A DNA stretch of 64,000 bases, taken from positions 16,479-80,478 of the forward strand of contig JBGVSY010000035.1 of assembly GCA_041862235.1 (NCBI GenBank). The letters run 5' to 3'. Each line of letters opens with the position of its first letter. Position 1 is the first letter of the stretch. This document shows positions 1,503 through 55,187 of the stretch, piece after piece. The notes under the pieces were generated by a model. It was given only the letters and a program-made list of their open reading frames with translations. It made no database searches and was not told where the DNA came from. This stretch comes from Nitrososphaeria archaeon. GTDB lineage: Archaea; Thermoproteota; Nitrososphaeria_A; Caldarchaeales; JAVZCJ01. Made by a program: the position numbers and the translations under genes.

Positions 1503-2855
1503 CTAGAACACGTAGTCACCCTTTGACCGGGAAGTCTTCTTTATGCCGAGGTCAGACACAAGCCTTCTCAGTTCTACGTCGATTTCGTCCTCGATTCTTC
1601 TCCGATCATCGTCTGAAACGTCTACTGAAATAGGTGTAGAGATCGGGCTTGGAGGAGCGGGCGGTTCGGGGGCCATCTCACCGCCGCTCTCACCAGGCCC
1701 GTTTCCACCGGACGAAGCTAGGACGGTTGGAGCAGGTTCGACTTTAGTTCCTAGGGGAATAGCAGCCAGGGCATCCAGTGGCTGTTGTTTCGGCTTTGGC
1801 TCTACTCCGGTGAGCACAAGCGAGACCTGCACCGTGGACGTCAAGTATGGATCAATTCTCGCACCCCAAATCACTAAGGCATCATCACTCATCAGCTCCG
1901 AGACTATCTCTCCAGGGCGGGAAGCTTCGTTCAAGCTCATGTCCTCGCCGCCACTCACATGTACTATCGCTCCGGAGATTCCTTCGTAAGTTACGTCGAG
2001 TAGAGGGGAGTTGAGTGCGTTGTACGTTGCTTCTTCAGCACGGTTTACAGTTGAAGACCAACCCATACCGATGGATGCCAGTTCCCCTCGGGACACTATC
2101 GTCTTGAAGTCGGCGTAATCTACGTTTATGAGGCTCGGCTTGGAAATGCAGTCTGTGATGCTCTGAACCATGTTTCGGATAACTTCATCTGCTAGCTCGA
2201 AAGCTGTCCTCAAGCTGTAGTGTGGGTAGAGCTCGCGAAGCCTGTTATTGTCGATCACAACCACGGTGTGGCACGAATTCCTCAGTTTTTCTAAGCCATC
2301 CATGGCAATCCTCTGACGCACCGCTCCCTCAAACCGAAATGGAGTTGTGATGACGCCGATGACTATAGCCCCGTTGTTCTTGGCGACATCTGCTATCAGT
2401 GGGGAGGCACCTGTACCTGTTCCGCCTCCCAGGCCGGTGGAGACGAAGATTATGTCGGCATCCCTAACGTATTTCTGGATTTCTTCAATCGACTCCTCAG
2501 CGGCCATCCTACCTGTCTCGGGGTTTCCACCACAGCCCTGCTCATGAGTAATAGTCGGTCCGATCAGTATCTTTCGGTTTGCTCTGACCATGTTCAGGTG
2601 GGTGGCGTCGGTGTTTATGGCTATGTTGGTTACCCCTTGAAGACCTCCTAGTGCTAACCTGTTGGCGGTGTTGCAGCCTGCGCCGCCGACCCCGACCAAC
2701 AGAATCCTAGTTGGTTGAGGCAGAACATCTTTGTCGAGCTTCCTCGGAACGAGCTCTGGCTTAGATAACTCGGGAGCAACAGGTGCGCGGAGGTCTGCTC
2801 GCGAGCTATCCTCTGAAAGAGAAGATCTTGGAGCAAATAGGTCTACGAAGGTCAT
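1503..2855 (-). CDS. ftsZ: FtsZ/tubulin-family cell-division GTPase
   Basis: The tubulin signature GGGTGTG, GVGGAGCNTANRL near the N-terminus, and a Pro/acidic-rich C-terminal tail. 450 aa. Confidence 0.85.
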   Translation of the reverse strand: MTFVDLFAPRSSLSEDSSRADLRAPVAPELSKPELVPRKLDKDVLPQPTRILLVGVGGAGCNTANRLALGGLQGVTNIAINTDATHLNMVRANRKILIGPTITHEQGCGGNPETGRMAAEESIEEIQKYVRDADIIFVSTGLGGGTGTGASPLIADVAKNNGAIVIGVITTPFRFEGAVRQRIAMDGLEKLRNSCHTVVVIDNNRLRELYPHYSLRTAFELADEVIRNMVQSITDCISKPSLINVDYADFKTIVSRGELASIGMGWSSTVNRAEEATYNALNSPLLDVTYEGISGAIVHVSGGEDMSLNEASRPGEIVSELMSDDALVIWGARIDPYLTSTVQVSLVLTGVEPKPKQQPLDALAAIPLGTKVEPAPTVLASSGGNGPGESGGEMAPEPPAPPSPISTPISVDVSDDDRRRIEDEIDVELRRLVSDLGIKKTSRSKGDYVF

Positions 2856-12868: not shown

Positions 12869-12992
12869 GGGCCCGTAGCCTAGAATGGATAGGGCGGCAG
12901 CCTCCTATCCTCCTTTGCGAGAGTCAGCTGCAGAGAGGTGGGACGAGCACCCCCTCGTGGAGATCGCGGGTTCAAATCCCGCCGGGCCCGCC
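12869..12992 (+). tRNA. tRNA-Arg (anticodon CCT, tentative), about 124 nt with two introns: a canonical one at 37/38 and a second in the variable-loop region
   Basis: Acceptor GGGCCCG pairs with CGGGCCC, then G and an encoded CCA. The D arm is GCCT/GGGC, the anticodon stem GCAGC/GCTGC, the loop CUCCUA, and the T arm GCGGG-TTCAAAT-CCCGC. There are about 18 extra nt after position 37 and about 29 extra nt between the anticodon stem and the T stem. Confidence 0.65.
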
Positions 12993-13100
12993 ATCGGCAA
13001 ATAATCAGATCGGCTTGTTCTCGGCTCTTCTTTAGGCGATCAGCTTGACTCAGATGGTTTCGGCCGTAGGATAAGACTTATTCAAGCCAGATCCCGCACA

Positions 13101-27377: not shown

Positions 27378-27479
27378 CTGAATATTAGCCCTTCACATCT
27401 GCCTGTGGGATGTCGGATCAGCTAAACAAGTTCCGCCAGCAACCGCAAGATTAATCCATTAGAACCCTCCACACCAACT

Positions 27480-27611
27480 AGCCCGGTGGTGTAGCGGCCA
27501 AGCATGGCGGGCTTTGGAGGGTGAATCCTGGAAGGGAACCCGGTGAGACCCGTCGATCGGGAGTTCGAAACTTGGAAGGGGAAGTTCCGAGCGACAGTCT
27601 CCCCCGGGCTA
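27480..27611 (+). tRNA. tRNA-Gln (anticodon TTG) with two introns: about 31 nt in the anticodon loop at 37/38 and about 27 nt in the T-loop at 59/60
   Basis: Acceptor AGCCCGG pairs with CCGGGCT. The D arm is GTGT...GCAT, the anticodon stem GCGGG/CCCGU, the loop CUUUGG[A], and the T stem GGGAG/CTCCC with TTCGAA[intron]T. Removing the insertions leaves a 74-nt cloverleaf. Confidence 0.7.
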
Positions 27612-27760
27612 CTATTCTTACCGATGATGTCAACCTAGCGCGGCTTCATATAACACCATGGGGTGAAGATTCTTCATAAATTTCTCCAAGCCCCTTTGTA
27701 GTTCTTCACAGATTCTTTGAGGCGCCTCTTAATATGTAGCAACTGATCAGATGAGTTGGT

Positions 27761-28723
27761 TTATGATGGTATCGGTTTCAGTTTCGTTGCGTGCTTGCTT
27801 CGGATCGAGTCAATGATAGCTTGAGCAATGACTGTGGCTCTGTAACCATCATCTATCGTAACAAGAGGCTTGGTCCTCTTCTTTACGCATGCGGCGAAGT
27901 GACTTAACTCTAACTTTAGTGGTTCCTCAAACTTCACTGTAGGTGTGATCTCGTGTTCCATCTTCTCGATTGAGACATTTTGTGCGAGGAAGTCAAGCTT
28001 AATTACGCCGTTTGTTCCTGTGACCTGCATTTCTCTCTTCTTTCTCGGTGTCAGCCAATTTGCCTCTACCAGTGCAGTCTTGTTGCGTGGGAAAACTAGC
28101 GTGGCCTGTACGTAATCAGTAAACTTATGACGCCGTAGCTTTCCTCCTCTGGCAAAGACCGCTTTCGGCCACTGATTGAACATATAGGTTGCGAGATCGA
28201 CATCATGTATCGCCGTGTCTCTTATCACCCCGACATCTCCTATTCTCACTGGCCAGCTGCCTATTCTCCTGGCGTATGAAAGCAGAACCTCCCCGATCTG
28301 TCCTTCTTCTATCATATTTCTTGTCTTCTGTACAACAGGGTTGAATCTCTCTATGAACCCCACTGACACTATGTTATCGAGTTTTCTGGCAAGATTGAGG
28401 ACCCTTCTTGCTTCGGTTACCTCGACGGCCATCGGTTTCTCAATCAGCACATCCTTGCCTGCTCGTAGAGCCGCTGTTGCGACCTCTCCATGTGTGTTGG
28501 AAGGCGTACAAATGGTGACGGCATCAACATTATCGTCCCTGAGAAGATCCTTGTAATTTGGGTACACTACAGGCACCCCATACCTTTGGGCTACACCTCT
28601 AGCCCTTTCTTCATCTAAGTCGCACAGAGCTTCGAGCTTGACATTAGGAAGCTCGGTGAACACGCGTGAATGGTTGCGCCCCCAGAACCCGGTTCCAATC
28701 ACGCCCATGCCAACTCGGTCCAT
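27761..28723 (-). CDS. Gfo/Idh/MocA-family NAD(P)-dependent oxidoreductase
   Basis: N-terminal Rossmann fold MGVIGTGFWGRNH...EKPM. Confidence 0.8.
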   Translation of the reverse strand: MDRVGMGVIGTGFWGRNHSRVFTELPNVKLEALCDLDEERARGVAQRYGVPVVYPNYKDLLRDDNVDAVTICTPSNTHGEVATAALRAGKDVLIEKPMAVEVTEARRVLNLARKLDNIVSVGFIERFNPVVQKTRNMIEEGQIGEVLLSYARRIGSWPVRIGDVGVIRDTAIHDVDLATYMFNQWPKAVFARGGKLRRHKFTDYVQATLVFPRNKTALVEANWLTPRKKREMQVTGTNGVIKLDFLAQNVSIEKMEHEITPTVKFEEPLKLELSHFAACVKKRTKPLVTIDDGYRATVIAQAIIDSIRSKHATKLKPIPS

Positions 28724-28732
28724 TCGTGCTCA

Positions 28733-29896
28733 CTACCGGGGTAAAGCCTGTAGCATACTAAAGTCGAACAAGGCCTTCTTGTCGCTGATTTCTGCTGAAG
28801 CAAATTCACGCAGTCCACTGTGGCTAGTGAGTAGGATGGCTAGATCCGCCTTGTTCAGTCTTTCACTTAGATCTCTCTGTTCACTGCTGTGAAGCTTGTC
28901 AACTACATCCGCCGTCAAATAGCTCTCGGTGACGCATCTTCGAGATTTTACGCCAGTCAATATTCGTTTCCTCTCTTCTTCCGTGTCAGCTACTACAAAC
29001 AGCTTGATCCTCCCTCTTTGGTCTCTAGTCCTCTTCTTTATCAAGCCCTTCAGATGAGCTATCCCATAGTTAACACCTGCATCCATTGTTTTCTCGACTT
29101 GATGCAGAAGCCTTGTCCCTTGAAACAATATACCTTCACCCTGAGTCAGGTAGCGGATGATTCCAGTAGCTTTGGGATCCCTTACAGCACTAGGAGCTAG
29201 GTGTTCTCCGACGTATTCAAAAACCTTTCTCACGTCTACGTCCAGCTGTTCGAAGAGGAGGAGAGCCTCGTACGCTACAGCTTTTAGGGCTTCATTCTCC
29301 ATCAGCTTGAGGGTGGAGGCCGCTTCTGCCTCCTTAATGCCATCCAACTTGACGATTTTTTCGTCTCCCCAAAGGTTTGAAGCTAACTCCATTGTCCTCC
29401 CCTGTAGCTTACTCTTCTCAGCCACGAATTTCACTCCTTTCGTCGGTGAGATATATGCAAGGTCCACGTCAAAACCGACTTGAAGTCCAGAGGCCTTCTC
29501 CACATTCTGTATTACCACGTCTTCCACGGTCCCCGGAAGACATACGCCGCTATACACTATCAGGGAACCTCTCCTGATGGCAGAGCCCACCAGTTTACTC
29601 AGGGTGTTCAACTCCATCCGACTATCTCCTTCTAGAGACTGGGCGTCTCTCGTAAGAATCACGATCTCCTGGTCCCCAATGACTTTCTGAACATCTACTG
29701 CGACCGAGATTCTTTCCTCTAGCATCAACTGCAGCTGAGTTCTCCTCGAAACTCCGGGTGCGTTTCCCTTTCTTATCACTGATAACACATATTCGTTGGG
29801 CGAGGAATAGGTTATCTTGAAACCTCTTAACGCCGCCTGAAAGGCTAGTGAAACCCCATCGAGCGAGGTGTCGACAACAACTAGTTCCTTACCCAT
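28733..29896 (-). CDS. Nucleotide-sugar dehydrogenase-like protein (UDP-glucose/ManNAc dehydrogenase architecture) lacking a canonical GxGxxG
   Basis: Three-domain layout of 387 aa like the UDP-sugar 6-dehydrogenases, but the N-terminal dinucleotide-binding glycine motif is degenerate (VVVDTSLDGVSLA). Confidence 0.45.
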   Translation of the reverse strand: MGKELVVVDTSLDGVSLAFQAALRGFKITYSSPNEYVLSVIRKGNAPGVSRRTQLQLMLEERISVAVDVQKVIGDQEIVILTRDAQSLEGDSRMELNTLSKLVGSAIRRGSLIVYSGVCLPGTVEDVVIQNVEKASGLQVGFDVDLAYISPTKGVKFVAEKSKLQGRTMELASNLWGDEKIVKLDGIKEAEAASTLKLMENEALKAVAYEALLLFEQLDVDVRKVFEYVGEHLAPSAVRDPKATGIIRYLTQGEGILFQGTRLLHQVEKTMDAGVNYGIAHLKGLIKKRTRDQRGRIKLFVVADTEEERKRILTGVKSRRCVTESYLTADVVDKLHSSEQRDLSERLNKADLAILLTSHSGLREFASAEISDKKALFDFSMLQALPR

Positions 29897-30149
29897 GAAG
29901 TCCTCTCCGTCCTGTCTTCTGCTCAGAGTTACGTTTGGGGGGGTACCATATAAGAAGAATCGAGAAAAGAGACATCCGATGGGTAACGCCTGGCTCGATC
30001 GATTGACGCGGTTCAGCTAACAGACCGGAGTCACAGCCACGTAAACGGACATTCTCTCAGTGCTTGCCAACTCACGAGTCTGGTGCCTCCACGCCGCTCA
30101 GGAACAGAGTATATATACCTTAATCTAGGTCTTGCCTTGGTACCACTAG

Positions 30150-31223
30150 ATGAAGATCTGGTTTGACGCTCTCACTCCAAAGCAGTTCTTGCTCTTTCAT
30201 TCTCTGAAGAATGAATTCGAGAAGCGAGGAGTGGATGTTTGGTTTACATCTCGGGACTATGAACAAGTTCTACCTTTGATACGAATGCTGAATGCTGATG
30301 TTGAGATTGTGGGAAAATTCGGGGGAGGTACGATGAAAGGCAAACTGCAGGCAAGCATCCTCAGATCGAAGAAACTCCTGAGGAGTGTGTCTCGAGAGAA
30401 ACCCGACGCCGCGATGTCCGGAGGTTCACCTGAATCAGCAAGGATTGCCTATGGTCTTACCTTTCCACATTTCTGCATGTCAGATTCCCCTCACTCACCA
30501 GTCTTTCCCTTGTGCCTACCGATCACTGAGATCCTTTTCTCTCCGTGGATCATTAGATTTGAAGAGTGGAGAAAACATGGGATATCGCGCTCTCATGTTA
30601 GGCATTACAAGGCGTTAGACCCGGTCTTTTGGTTGACCAACGTCTCTCCGAAAAGATCTGTCTTGCAAGATCTGCGGCTCAAAGAGGGCCAATATGTTTT
30701 AGTTAGGGTTCCAGAGGTACTTGCCTCATACTTGCTGGGAGTCAAGGGCGGCGGCAATTCAAAAACTATGAATTTTATTCGGGGACTCCCTTCAATTTTT
30801 CCGGAGCAAAGGATAGTGATCATGACTAGGTACTCAAGGCAAGGCAAAATCTTTAGAAGACTCGGCAACAGAATACTGTTGGTCGATAGAGTAGTCGATG
30901 GAACTAACTTGGTTCGTTTCGCCTCCCTTTTCATAGGCGGTGGCGGAACCATGACGCAGGAAGCAGCGCTGCTCGGGGTTCCAGCGATCTCCATCTTTCC
31001 AGGGCCTAAGCTGACCGTCATGGAATACCTACGTAGAAAAGGGCTGGTAACCAATTTCTCTGATCCAGACCTGGCGCTGAAATATTTGCGTAGAGCGTCC
31101 ACAAGAATTATAGAGTTGGCCGAGAAACAGAGAAAACTCTGCCGCTCGCTCTGGCGGATTATGAACGACCCCAAACCCCAGATAGCTACAGATGTGATTT
31201 CGTGGACGGAACGATCGAGTTGA
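30150..31223 (+). CDS. DUF354-family protein (GT-B fold, UDP-GlcNAc 2-epimerase-like)
   Basis: N-terminus MKIWFDALTPKQ and a length of 357 aa, typical of archaeal DUF354 proteins found in glycosylation clusters. Confidence 0.5.
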   Translation: MKIWFDALTPKQFLLFHSLKNEFEKRGVDVWFTSRDYEQVLPLIRMLNADVEIVGKFGGGTMKGKLQASILRSKKLLRSVSREKPDAAMSGGSPESARIAYGLTFPHFCMSDSPHSPVFPLCLPITEILFSPWIIRFEEWRKHGISRSHVRHYKALDPVFWLTNVSPKRSVLQDLRLKEGQYVLVRVPEVLASYLLGVKGGGNSKTMNFIRGLPSIFPEQRIVIMTRYSRQGKIFRRLGNRILLVDRVVDGTNLVRFASLFIGGGGTMTQEAALLGVPAISIFPGPKLTVMEYLRRKGLVTNFSDPDLALKYLRRASTRIIELAEKQRKLCRSLWRIMNDPKPQIATDVISWTERSS

Positions 31224-35956: not shown

Positions 35957-36110
35957 GGCGCCGGGAGTGGGACTTCCAGTGGTCTTCACCACCTTTGAAC
36001 CCACGAGACCCCGAAGGGTCACAGGCTCTCTGGCCATTGTCATATAGGATCTCGAGGCCTGCGCTTCAGCGAGAGCTGAAACTGCGCTTTAACCACTCAG
36101 CCATCCCGGC
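35957..36110 (-). tRNA. tRNA-Ser (anticodon CGA) with three introns, near the 26/27 junction, in the anticodon loop at 37/38, and in the T-loop at 59/60. CCA is encoded.
   Basis: The minus-strand sequence has acceptor GCCGGGA pairing with UCCCGGC followed by GCCA, a D arm GCU...AGC-G, and an insert of about 23 nt flanked by a GCGCAG direct repeat. The anticodon stem is CAGGC/GCCUG with loop CUCGAG plus a 23-nt intron, a Ser-type variable arm ACCCUUCGGGGU, and a T stem GUGGG/CCCAC with UUCAAA, a 21-nt intron, then U. A TATA-like agtattaagg lies about 35 nt upstream. Confidence 0.65.
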
Positions 36111-41784: not shown

Positions 41785-43254
41785 ATGGATGAGCGTGGTG
41801 TAAAGAATAGGCCCAACCTGAGGTTGCTGTCGAATGAGGTCATAGAGCGAATCCATGAGTCCTCTATTCGGTTGCTTGCGGACATAGGAGTAACAGTAGA
41901 AAGCCGTGAAGCTTTGGATATCCTAAGAGAAGGAGGTGCCAAGGTCGACGAAGTGAAGAGAAACGTAAAGATTCCTTCATCTTTAATCGAGGAAACATTG
42001 AGGAAGGCTCCTCATAGATTAACCATCTACAGCCGCGATAGAAGACATGATCTCAACCTTGCAGAAAACAACGTTTATTTTGATCCTGGATCAGCGGCTA
42101 TATCCATCTTTGATTATAGCAAGGCTTCACCAAGACCTCCCGCTCTCAAGGACGTAAAGGACTTCGCTGTTGTTGTGGATTCATTGAAGAATATTCATGC
42201 TCAAAGCACAGCACTAGTGCCAATGGATATGCCAGAGACTATGAGGGACAGGATTCGTCTCTATGTTGTTCTGAAGTACTCGACGAAGCCTATCGTAACT
42301 GGGGCCTTTACTGTTGATGGAATTTCAGACATGAAACACATGCTTGACATTGTTTCAGATAGCGGGTCAAAGAAGGCGGGGGCTATGGCTATTTTCGATG
42401 TTTGTCCGTCACCTCCCTTGAAGTGGAGTCACCTAGCTGCCAAGAATGTGATTGATTGTGCTGAAGCGGGTCTGCCCGTTGAGTTGGTCTCTATGCCCCA
42501 GATCTCGGCGACAGCACCAGCCACTCTCGCTGGGTGCCTAGTGCAACATAACGCTGAGGTGCTTTCAGGAATAGCGTTGGCTCAATTAGCATATCCCGGA
42601 ACACCAGTTATCTATGGGGGATCTCCCGCACTATTCGATCCGCGATACGGTACATCGGTAATGGGTTCTCCAGAAGTGTTACTTCTGTCCTGTGGATACG
42701 TAGATATGGCTAAACACTATGGACTACCCAGCCACGCCTACCTCGGTATGAGCGACGCCAAAGTGATTGATTACCAAGCTGGTTTCGAAAGCGCATTCGG
42801 GGCTTTGATGGGTGCTTTGAAAGGGATAAACATCATTTCTGGCGCAGGTATGATCGAGTTTGAGTCTTGTCAAAGTTTGGAGAAACTGGTGCTTGATGAT
42901 GAGATATGTGGTTATGTACATAGGGTTGCCACAGGCATCGACGTGACTGAGGAGACTCTAGCCAACCAAATCTTTCAAGAGTGTGTGGCAAAGGGACATT
43001 TCCTTTCACATAAGCATACAGTCAGGTGGCTAAGAAGAGAGCAATACATACCAAGTGAGTTGGTTGACCGCAGGGATAGGAGCATGTGGAGAGCTCTCGG
43101 TAGGCTTGATGCCCTGAAACGAGCACGAACACGAGTGGAACAAATACTCTCTGACCATCAACCGGAACCTCTAGAGCCCGACATCGAGAAAGAACTCACC
43201 CGTTTTGCCGTTTCGATCTGTAGATCACATGGAGTCCCCCGCCTGACACTCTAA
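41785..43254 (+). CDS. MttB-superfamily methyltransferase (trimethylamine/quaternary-amine:corrinoid methyltransferase family) without pyrrolysine
   Basis: Uninterrupted 489-aa ORF of MttB length and context, with no in-frame TAG. Confidence 0.7.
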   Translation: MDERGVKNRPNLRLLSNEVIERIHESSIRLLADIGVTVESREALDILREGGAKVDEVKRNVKIPSSLIEETLRKAPHRLTIYSRDRRHDLNLAENNVYFDPGSAAISIFDYSKASPRPPALKDVKDFAVVVDSLKNIHAQSTALVPMDMPETMRDRIRLYVVLKYSTKPIVTGAFTVDGISDMKHMLDIVSDSGSKKAGAMAIFDVCPSPPLKWSHLAAKNVIDCAEAGLPVELVSMPQISATAPATLAGCLVQHNAEVLSGIALAQLAYPGTPVIYGGSPALFDPRYGTSVMGSPEVLLLSCGYVDMAKHYGLPSHAYLGMSDAKVIDYQAGFESAFGALMGALKGINIISGAGMIEFESCQSLEKLVLDDEICGYVHRVATGIDVTEETLANQIFQECVAKGHFLSHKHTVRWLRREQYIPSELVDRRDRSMWRALGRLDALKRARTRVEQILSDHQPEPLEPDIEKELTRFAVSICRSHGVPRLTL

Positions 43255-54311: not shown

Positions 54312-55187
54312 TTGAGTAAGGAAGGCGAAAAGGAGAGGCAAGCTTTGTTGCCCTCGCCTTCGTTGGCGGTGGAAGCGGGATTGGTTGTGGGGACCCTGGG
54401 GGTAATATCATATCTGTCGAGGGTGGTTGATAGGCAGGGGCTTCTTGCTGGACTGCTCGTAGGTTATGTCACCTATGCGTTTGGCGGAAGGTTTCTGTTT
54501 CTACCCATGGTCGTTTTCCACGTTATAGCTGGAGTGTCTACGAAGTACAAGTATGATGTGAAGAGAGAGAAGGGAGTCGCTGAGGAGAAGATGGGGGCAC
54601 GGGGATGGTGGAATGTGCTGGCAAATGGGGCCGTAGCAGCCGCCTTCGCTTTTGGAAGCGGGGTCAGTGGGAGTTCCGTCAATCTGGTGTGGTTAGCGGG
54701 TTTCTTGGGCGCGATAGGAACGGCGGCGGCGGACACTGTGGCTACAGAGATTGGACTACTTTCTAGGAAACCGCCGCGCTTGATAACTGATCTGAAGACG
54801 AGGGTTCCTCCAGGTACGTCGGGAGGCGTGTCTGTGTTGGGAGAGTCAGCCCAGATCGTGAGCTCGGTCTTGACAAGCGCAGCGGTCGTCATATTCATCC
54901 CGTCTGCGGATTTTGCTAGGTGGGTTTTCGGGGTAACGGTGGTTTCTAGCTTCGTGGGGTCCACGCTGGATAGTGTAATTGGAGCGACTGTGCAGGGGAT
55001 TTTTAGATGTGAGGTTTGCCAGGGAACAACGGAGAAGAGGGTTCATTGTGGTAGGAAGACGGTTCACGTTAGAGGCAGTCCTTCGATCGACAACAACGTC
55101 GTGAACCTGTTGGCCACAGCGTTCGGTGCCGCGGTGGCAATAGCCTTGCATTTGTTAGGAGTGTTCGGGTTTGCTTTTAGGGTCTGA
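54312..55187 (+). CDS. DUF92/TMEM19-family integral membrane protein
   Basis: Multiple transmembrane helices with G-rich motifs (GGR, ANGAVAAAFA) and a C-terminal CEVCQGTTEKRVHCG zinc-ribbon-like tail. Confidence 0.55.
   Translation: MSKEGEKERQALLPSPSLAVEAGLVVGTLGVISYLSRVVDRQGLLAGLLVGYVTYAFGGRFLFLPMVVFHVIAGVSTKYKYDVKREKGVAEEKMGARGWWNVLANGAVAAAFAFGSGVSGSSVNLVWLAGFLGAIGTAAADTVATEIGLLSRKPPRLITDLKTRVPPGTSGGVSVLGESAQIVSSVLTSAAVVIFIPSADFARWVFGVTVVSSFVGSTLDSVIGATVQGIFRCEVCQGTTEKRVHCGRKTVHVRGSPSIDNNVVNLLATAFGAAVAIALHLLGVFGFAFRV

Follow-up and report, generated by a model that had tools for sequence, protein, structure and literature searches.

The plus strand of the window (the whole 64-kb stretch of DNA analyzed here) very probably carries, at positions 27480–27611, a functional archaeal tRNA-Gln(UUG) gene whose 132-nt precursor body is interrupted by two short introns, both predicted to be of the protein-spliced bulge-helix-bulge (BHB) type. 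One lies at the canonical 37/38 site and the other in the T-loop, at the non-canonical 59/60 site (Table 1). Read from its sequence, the gene is almost certainly functional.

Table 1. Positions of the parts of the tRNA-Gln gene and of the other tRNA genes in the window
Feature	Position	Strand	Details
Promoter-like A/T box	27447–27457	+	AAGATTAATCC; TATA-like ATTAAT, −30 to −25 from mature 5′ end
tRNA-Gln exon 1, positions 1–37	27480–27517	+	Acceptor 5′ AGCCCGG, D-arm, anticodon stem 5′ GCGGG, loop CUUUGG, anticodon UUG
tRNA-Gln intron 1, canonical 37/38	27518–27547	+	30 nt; AGGGTGAATCCTGGAAGGGAACCCGGTGAG; with intron 2 excised, ARAGORN intron mode gives i(39,30)
tRNA-Gln exon 2, positions 38–59	27548–27569	+	A38, anticodon stem 3′ CCCGU, variable loop CGAUC, T-stem 5′ GGGAG, T-loop UUCGAA
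tRNA-Gln intron 2, non-canonical T-loop 59/60	27570–27597	+	28 nt; ACTTGGAAGGGGAAGTTCCGAGCGACAG; independently from BHB scan and ARAGORN
tRNA-Gln exon 3, positions 60–73	27598–27611	+	U60, T-stem 3′ CUCCC, acceptor 3′ CCGGGCU, discriminator A
tRNA-Arg(CCU)	12869–12993	+	Introns 37/38 (12908–12925, 18 nt) and 45/46 (12934–12962, 29 nt); spliced product verified
tRNA-Leu(CAG)	20727–20615	−	Single 25-nt variable-arm-loop intron (20673–20649), perfect BHB CCGA/UCGG
tRNA-Ser(CGA)	36110–35956	−	Introns 29/30 (36081–36059), 37/38 (36050–36028) and 59/60 (35993–35973); encoded CCA

The tRNA-Gln locus and its predicted splice motifs

Excision of both introns leaves AGCCCGGTGGTGTAGCGGCCAAGCATGGCGGGCTTTGGACCCGTCGATCGGGAGTTCGAATCTCCCCCGGGCTA, a product of 74 nt, including discriminator A73, in which every stem is Watson-Crick or G-U paired and which ARAGORN recognizes as tRNA-Gln(ttg). 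The anticodon loop and the T-loop have the standard size of 7 nt. The molecule is a class I cloverleaf with UUG at positions 34–36 and A1-U72, the usual first pair of archaeal tRNA-Gln and one that the search pattern fixed in all 115 complete genes among the matches listed in our comparisons. It matches an intron-free tRNA-Gln of the Nezhaarchaeales except at position 38 and for a single additional base in the variable loop. The earlier note had placed the gene at exactly these coordinates and had described the same fully paired 74-nt cloverleaf, both of which were reproduced here. The sum of its insert sizes (31 and 27 nt, together 58) also stands, with each value off by one: the true sizes are 30 and 28 nt, since with inserts of 31 and 27 nt the anticodon loop would be left with 6 nt and the T-loop with 8. 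The layout of the locus is AGCCCGG UG GUGU AGCGGCCAA GCAU G GCGGG CUUUGG (30 nt) A CCCGU CGAUC GGGAG UUCGAA (28 nt) U CUCCC CCGGGCU A. The gene does not encode CCA; the bases that follow the discriminator are CTA. The motif GATGATG just downstream (27623–27630) was considered as a C/D box and rejected, the sR7 match being weak (11.8 bits) and the motif not conserved in two other loci (L130 and L240). A mir-5360 match at the locus, obtained with 500 nt in the E-value mode of Rfam, scored 26 bits against a cutoff of 79 and was dismissed as spurious; it mirrors the hairpin-rich 3′ half.

Canonical archaeal pre-tRNAs use the anticodon stem as outer helix; bases 32–35 of the loop pair with the four intron bases before the last two, and each of two 3-nt bulges is cut after its second base. 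Both introns have exactly this hBHBh′ spacing, with outer helices of 5 bp and inner helices of 4 and 7 bp. The central helix of intron 1 consists of C32-G, U33/U (a non-pair), U34-G and U35-G, flanked by bulges GG↓A and AG↓A (arrows, predicted cuts), with GGGU/ACCC as the inner helix. For intron 2, the T-stem GGGAG/CUCCC is the outer helix, the central helix is U54/C (a non-pair), U55-A, C56-G and G57-C, the bulges are AA↓A and AG↓U, and the inner helix is CUUGGAA/UUCCGAG (7 bp). Each 4-bp central helix has three of its four pairs, and both motifs are therefore relaxed rather than strict hBHBh′; the two non-pairs are kept in all nine orthologues described below (U33 facing U or C; U54 facing C). 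A blind scan for BHB motifs on both strands of the whole window, requiring at least three of four central pairs and outer and inner helices of 3 bp and followed by ARAGORN, recovered exactly the two tRNA-Gln introns at this locus. The assignment of one intron to 37/38 and of the other to the T-loop at 59/60, as originally proposed, is one on which ARAGORN, the BHB scan and a deletion test (described below) agree.

Folding energies treat the two motifs differently. The BHB fold of the T-arm lies within 0.6 kcal/mol of the local minimum free energy (MFE) and that of the anticodon arm 8.7 kcal/mol above it. For the whole 132-nt precursor, the MFE is −57.2 kcal/mol against −41.4 for the cloverleaf-plus-BHB structure, the fold z-score is only −1.68, and MFE folding of the whole precursor did not recover the cloverleaf. 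As BHB motifs are recognized by protein, this result was not taken to settle the matter. Two alternative pairings were rejected. Using CGAG as the partner of UUCG would give intron 2 a perfect central helix and would leave a 7-nt 3′ bulge with no inner helix. The MFE register of the anticodon arm (C32-G-1, U33-A-2, U34-G-3) requires an A at intron position −2, where seven of the nine orthologues have U, whereas the BHB pairs of this arm hold in all nine.

With the exon bases on either side, each intron would fold into a BHB whose outer helix is the anticodon stem (intron 1) or the T-stem (intron 2); in both, the first four bases of the loop would pair with the four intron bases immediately before the 3′ bulge. 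Cleavage at the four bulge sites would fall to EndA, the archaeal splicing endonuclease; an RNA ligase, which in archaea is RtcB, would then join the three exons, and the non-encoded CCA would last be supplied by the CCA-adding enzyme. Mismatches in the central helices point to a need for the broad-specificity (alpha-beta)2 form of EndA with an L1 loop, which would be the form acting in TACK and Asgard archaea; enzymes of this form are found in Asgard and throughout TACK, Aigarchaeota included (PMC5829648). For cleavage, ligation, the enzymes and expression, this scheme draws on established knowledge of the pathway; the anatomy, cloverleaf restoration, conservation and covariation are read from the locus and its relatives.

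Conservation among close relatives

The gene that follows the tRNA (27761–28723, minus strand) encodes a Gfo/Idh/MocA oxidoreductase, with its called start 5 codons downstream. A homologue search with this protein found environmental contigs with identities of 99, 90, 89, 84 and 81% and the same gene order as the window; every syntenic contig that reaches far enough has a tRNA-Gln with both inserts. Two further variants of the window-type gene came from a metagenome scan. The resulting ortholog set comprises nine distinct 132-nt sequences, the window and eight others, which align without gaps and agree in the sites and lengths (30 and 28 nt) of both introns. The earlier note had proposed a comparison with orthologous tRNA-Gln genes, and the architecture does recur in these eight further distinct sequences.

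Identity to the window sequence is 97–100% in the exons, 75–97% in the introns and 48–99% in the flanks. Among the nine orthologues, 2 of the 74 exon columns are variable as against 21 of the 58 intron columns (Fisher p = 6e-7). Exons 1 and 3 are invariant, apart from which the only two exon changes fall in the anticodon stem and the variable loop; the former converts G28-U74 to G28-C74 and preserves pairing. Overall, 93.2% of the cells in the cloverleaf-plus-BHB structure pair, compared with 32–56% when the partners are slid by 1–3 columns. In the inner helix of intron 1, pair 40-62 changes from G-C to A-U in two distinct sequences, one of them identical in five loci, and in the inner helix of intron 2, pair 98-106 changes from A-U to G-C in a single sequence (L135). 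Pairs 93-111 and 94-110 of intron 2 show U-A/U-G swaps, and all other changes in the intron helices are one-sided G-C/G-U/A-U swaps that keep pairing. Compensatory pairs number only two, a count reached by 76 of 500 shuffles, and among orthologues this closely related covariation lends only thin support. These substitutions are a modest indication, from a small and closely related set, that the helices are maintained by selection across relatives.

Upstream of the gene, a box of the form AAGrTTAATyC at about −31 to −24 is conserved in all nine loci, with the surrounding upstream sequence down to 51–66% identity. The box is consistent with an archaeal TATA element and, given its TATA-typical position, we regard it as a putative promoter.

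Four interrupted tRNA genes and alternative readings of the locus

All four tRNA genes in the window are interrupted, by eight introns in total. Five of the introns are non-canonical; two of these are at 59/60 and the rest at 29/30, 45/46 and in the tRNA-Leu variable arm. ARAGORN in default mode detects none of the four genes and the Rfam tRNA model two (tRNA-Arg and tRNA-Leu), so that tRNA-Gln and tRNA-Ser are missed by both. The 45/46 motif of tRNA-Arg(CCU) uses the 3′ strand of the anticodon stem, CUGC, in its central helix (CUGC/GUGG); unspliced, this gene scores 45.3 bits with Rfam, and ARAGORN intron mode misreports it with one 28-nt intron. The tRNA-Leu(CAG) gene has no 37/38 intron, and its unspliced form is miscalled as tRNA-SeC(tca) in intron mode. 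Spliced tRNA-Ser is recognized by ARAGORN as tRNA-Ser(cga). The earlier note had observed that tRNA-Ser (which it gave as 35957–36110) uses the same 59/60 site, and this is so; the gene lies on the minus strand, extends to 35956 with its encoded CCA and has three introns. Its 59/60 intron, GGTGGTGAAGACCACTGGAAG, forms a perfect BHB with central helix UUCA/UGGA, bulges AA↓G and AG↓U and inner helix GUGGU/ACCAC. The 29/30 intron of the same gene lies between direct repeats (GCGCAG...GCGCAG), with a perfect GCGC/GCGC central helix and no outer helix (HBh′-type relaxed). CCA is encoded in tRNA-Arg, tRNA-Leu and tRNA-Ser and not in tRNA-Gln. An apparent tRNA-Val(tac) with a 365-nt intron, reported by ARAGORN intron mode at 54415–54876 (plus strand) inside an ORF (54312–55187) just downstream of HisRS, does not come up in the BHB scan and is probably a false positive.

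One observation that would have counted against two introns, according to the earlier note, is an alternative fold with a single intron that explains the tRNA-Gln sequence equally well, to which an expanded T-loop or variable region can be added. Every segment of 8–99 nt across 27470–27625 was deleted singly and the 8,596 constructs were run through ARAGORN; not one gave a tRNA, and in each of the 65 intron-mode solutions a T-loop deletion is accompanied by one and the same 30-nt anticodon-loop intron. When the T-loop insert alone was removed, intron mode reported that 30-nt intron, and when intron 1 alone was removed, nothing was found, even in intron mode. A one-intron reading can draw on the tolerance of ARAGORN for T-loop deletions of 26–31 nt with shifted borders, on account of which the exact borders are not fixed by cloverleaf restoration alone. 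Set against the deletion results, we give it practically no credence. Somewhat more room is left for a tRNA-derived pseudogene or relic, in which the inserts are scars of decay or insertion and no functional tRNA is made. Both standard finders make no call at the unspliced locus (ARAGORN in default mode, Rfam at its gathering threshold), and there is a mismatch in both BHB central helices. The exons, however, remain 97–100% identical in relatives whose flanks have fallen to 48–66%, their changes are limited to two with the stem pair kept, the intron helices show compensatory change, the promoter-like box is conserved, and the 64-kb window holds no second tRNA-Gln. A pseudogene is thus very unlikely.

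The remaining alternative concerns where the introns came from: the 59/60 introns of tRNA-Gln and tRNA-Ser would be copies of one mobile intron transposed between genes within the lineage. Intron transposition between tRNA genes was reportedly proposed for Thermoproteales by Fujishima et al. in 2010 (cited in PMC4090602). In the window, introns 1 and 2 of tRNA-Gln have the 8-mer TGGAAGGG in common (shuffle p about 0.017), and CTGGAAG is common to intron 3 of tRNA-Ser and intron 1 of tRNA-Gln (p about 0.05). Neither value survives correction for the 28 comparisons among eight introns, so intron-to-intron similarity was set aside as evidence of transposition. The two 59/60 introns themselves, moreover, show no significant similarity, and they differ in length (28 versus 21 nt) and in their inner helices. 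Common descent by transposition is accordingly a doubtful account of the two sites, and we retain the reading of a functional tRNA-Gln gene with two predicted introns in what follows.

Distribution of the 59/60 intron, host and significance

The pattern used to scan species-representative genomes came solely from the 5′ exon and so is unbiased as to introns; the scan returned at least 120 loci, and the genome loci listed are all from genomes other than that of the window. Among the matches listed were 92 intron-free tRNA-Gln genes. A T-loop insert after UUCGAA is present in 9 of the 14 Promethearchaeota (Asgard) loci among the matches listed, one contig ending inside the insert, and also in an unlabelled locus (L031) with an Asgard-type tRNA sequence. 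Genes with both 37/38 and 59/60 introns occur in a Bathyarchaeia MAG (L024) and an unclassified archaeon (L042); these two and two further loci (L008 and L038) all gave tRNA-Gln(ttg) in ARAGORN when spliced. A metagenome scan with the pattern GGAGTTCGAA-N12-42-TCTCCCCCGGGCTA found at least 120 contigs with a 59/60 insert, representing at least 110 unique genes, many of them with three or four introns. Among at least 112 unique T-arms of 59/60-insert tRNA-Gln genes, 104 have a perfect 4-bp central helix, and the eight with three of four pairs include the window clade. Ten of the metagenome contigs have tRNA-Gln(UUG) genes of 158–159 nt. By their sequence, these appear to hold four predicted inserts, after 9/10, in the D-loop, at 37/38 and at 59/60, and their host is presumably Bathyarchaeia. 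Published multi-intron archaeal tRNA genes have up to three introns per gene (PMC4090602).

The site is therefore not the lineage-specific one that the earlier note had suggested: 59/60 is already listed as a known archaeal non-canonical site, with 29/30 and 45/46 (Yoshihisa 2014, PMC4090602), and recurs in tRNA-Gln of Asgard, of L024 and L042 and of the metagenome contigs described above. Nor is it clearly preferred, with two of the five non-canonical introns in the window. In the nearest outgroup with the same neighbourhood (four loci, L137–L140, with oxidoreductases 54–56% identical), the syntenic tRNA-Gln(UUG) has D-loop and 37/38 introns instead, with an intact UUCGAAU T-loop and no 59/60 intron. 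The tRNA-Gln genes of Nezhaarchaeales and most Bathyarchaeia among the matches listed have no introns. A D-loop intron in a neighbouring outgroup, together with 59/60 introns across phyla, indicates that intron positions turn over between neighbouring clades.

The Asgard and Bathyarchaeia 59/60 genes share with the window their tRNA identity, insertion after UUCGAA, BHB layout, in several cases (L024, L042) the 37/38 intron too, and a neighbourhood with Gfo/Idh/MocA and DUF354 genes. They differ in that the 59/60 introns of Asgard, Bathyarchaeia and metagenome genes mostly have perfect UUCG/CGAA helices (104 of at least 112) and are 13–47 nt long, whereas the window clade has its conserved U54/C non-pair and an intron sequence unrelated to those of Asgard and Bathyarchaeia. 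We infer that the recurrence of 59/60 is a matter of geometry: with its 5-bp stem and 7-nt loop, the T-arm is isosteric to the anticodon arm, and 59/60 corresponds in it to 37/38; both sites lie between the sixth and seventh loop bases, so that a 37/38-style BHB can be built at 59/60 with the mature tRNA unchanged. It is possible, and we put it forward tentatively, that the tRNA-Gln 59/60 intron is ancient or a repeatedly regained hot spot, shared by three groups of phylum level (Aigarchaeota-like archaea, Bathyarchaeia and Asgard/Promethearchaeota), kept beside a conserved set of neighbouring genes and replaced in neighbouring clades by D-loop or other introns. At 13 loci, tRNA-Gln adjoins a gene for a Gfo/Idh/MocA oxidoreductase (UDP-GlcNAc 3-dehydrogenase in some sources) and/or a DUF354 gene, as it does in the window (27761–31223), and the arrangement is found in Nitrososphaerales, Bathyarchaeia and Asgard at only 33–40% protein identity, an unusually deep conservation for a tRNA gene beside glycan genes.

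Genes with several introns, and non-canonical BHB introns, are said to have been described in Thermoproteales and other Crenarchaeota by Marck and Grosjean in 2003 and by Sugahara et al. in 2007. The window resembles the multi-intron tRNA genes of that group in combining 37/38 with non-canonical sites, in its strict or relaxed BHB motifs and in yielding a cloverleaf on their removal (PMC4090602). It differs in that its host is not a crenarchaeote, encodes FtsZ and has a HisRS closest (88%) to an 'Aigarchaeota archaeon' MAG; nor do its introns support families spread by transposition. Candidatus Caldiarchaeum subterraneum, of the same broad lineage as the window, has introns in the D-, V- and T-arms and at 37/38, with several in some genes (Sugahara et al. 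2012, PMC3293823). There, 13 of 45 tRNA genes have introns and three have more than one, compared with four of four genes and eight introns in the window; the window proteins are only about 50% identical to those of Caldarchaeum.

The window also encodes FtsZ, an MttB-family protein, HisRS and PGK. Its HisRS is 86–90% identical to environmental proteins, 88% to the partial 'Aigarchaeota archaeon' protein and about 50% to those of Caldarchaeum/Nitrososphaerota; judged by these proteins, the source is an uncultured Aigarchaeota-like member of the Nitrososphaerota/TACK group. The FtsZ homologue (1503–2855, minus strand) has a Tubulin/FtsZ GTPase domain and FtsZ_C, and helps to exclude a Thermoprotei (crenarchaeal) origin despite the crenarchaeote-like load of tRNA introns. 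The MttB-family methyltransferase ORF (41785–43254, plus strand) is uninterrupted, encodes 489 aa and appears from its sequence to be a non-pyrrolysine member. A sub-threshold Rfam PYLIS_3 match inside it (42748–42847; 30 bits against a cutoff of 38) is probably coding-sequence homology, not a Pyl insertion element.

A tRNA-Gln gene with two introns is a well-documented archaeal design of a kind known since 2003–2008, correct but ordinary, here in a poorly described lineage, and the locus reveals no new mechanism. More interesting is the residue: the wide distribution of the tRNA-Gln 59/60 intron and the ease with which standard finders miss it. Because such finders miss interrupted genes, genomes of this group will look tRNA-deficient unless a BHB-intron search is made; the practical value thus lies in annotation, where tRNA-Gln may be systematically 'missing' from MAGs with 59/60 introns. 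The locus also offers a well-anchored syntenic series for the turnover of tRNA introns, with 37/38 and 59/60 here, D-loop and 37/38 in the outgroup and none in Nezhaarchaeales and most Bathyarchaeia. If the 59/60 intron does prove to be ancient or a hot spot, charting its gains and losses systematically at this one locus could put models for the origin of archaeal tRNA introns to the test, as well as the idea that introns protect tRNA genes from integrating elements.
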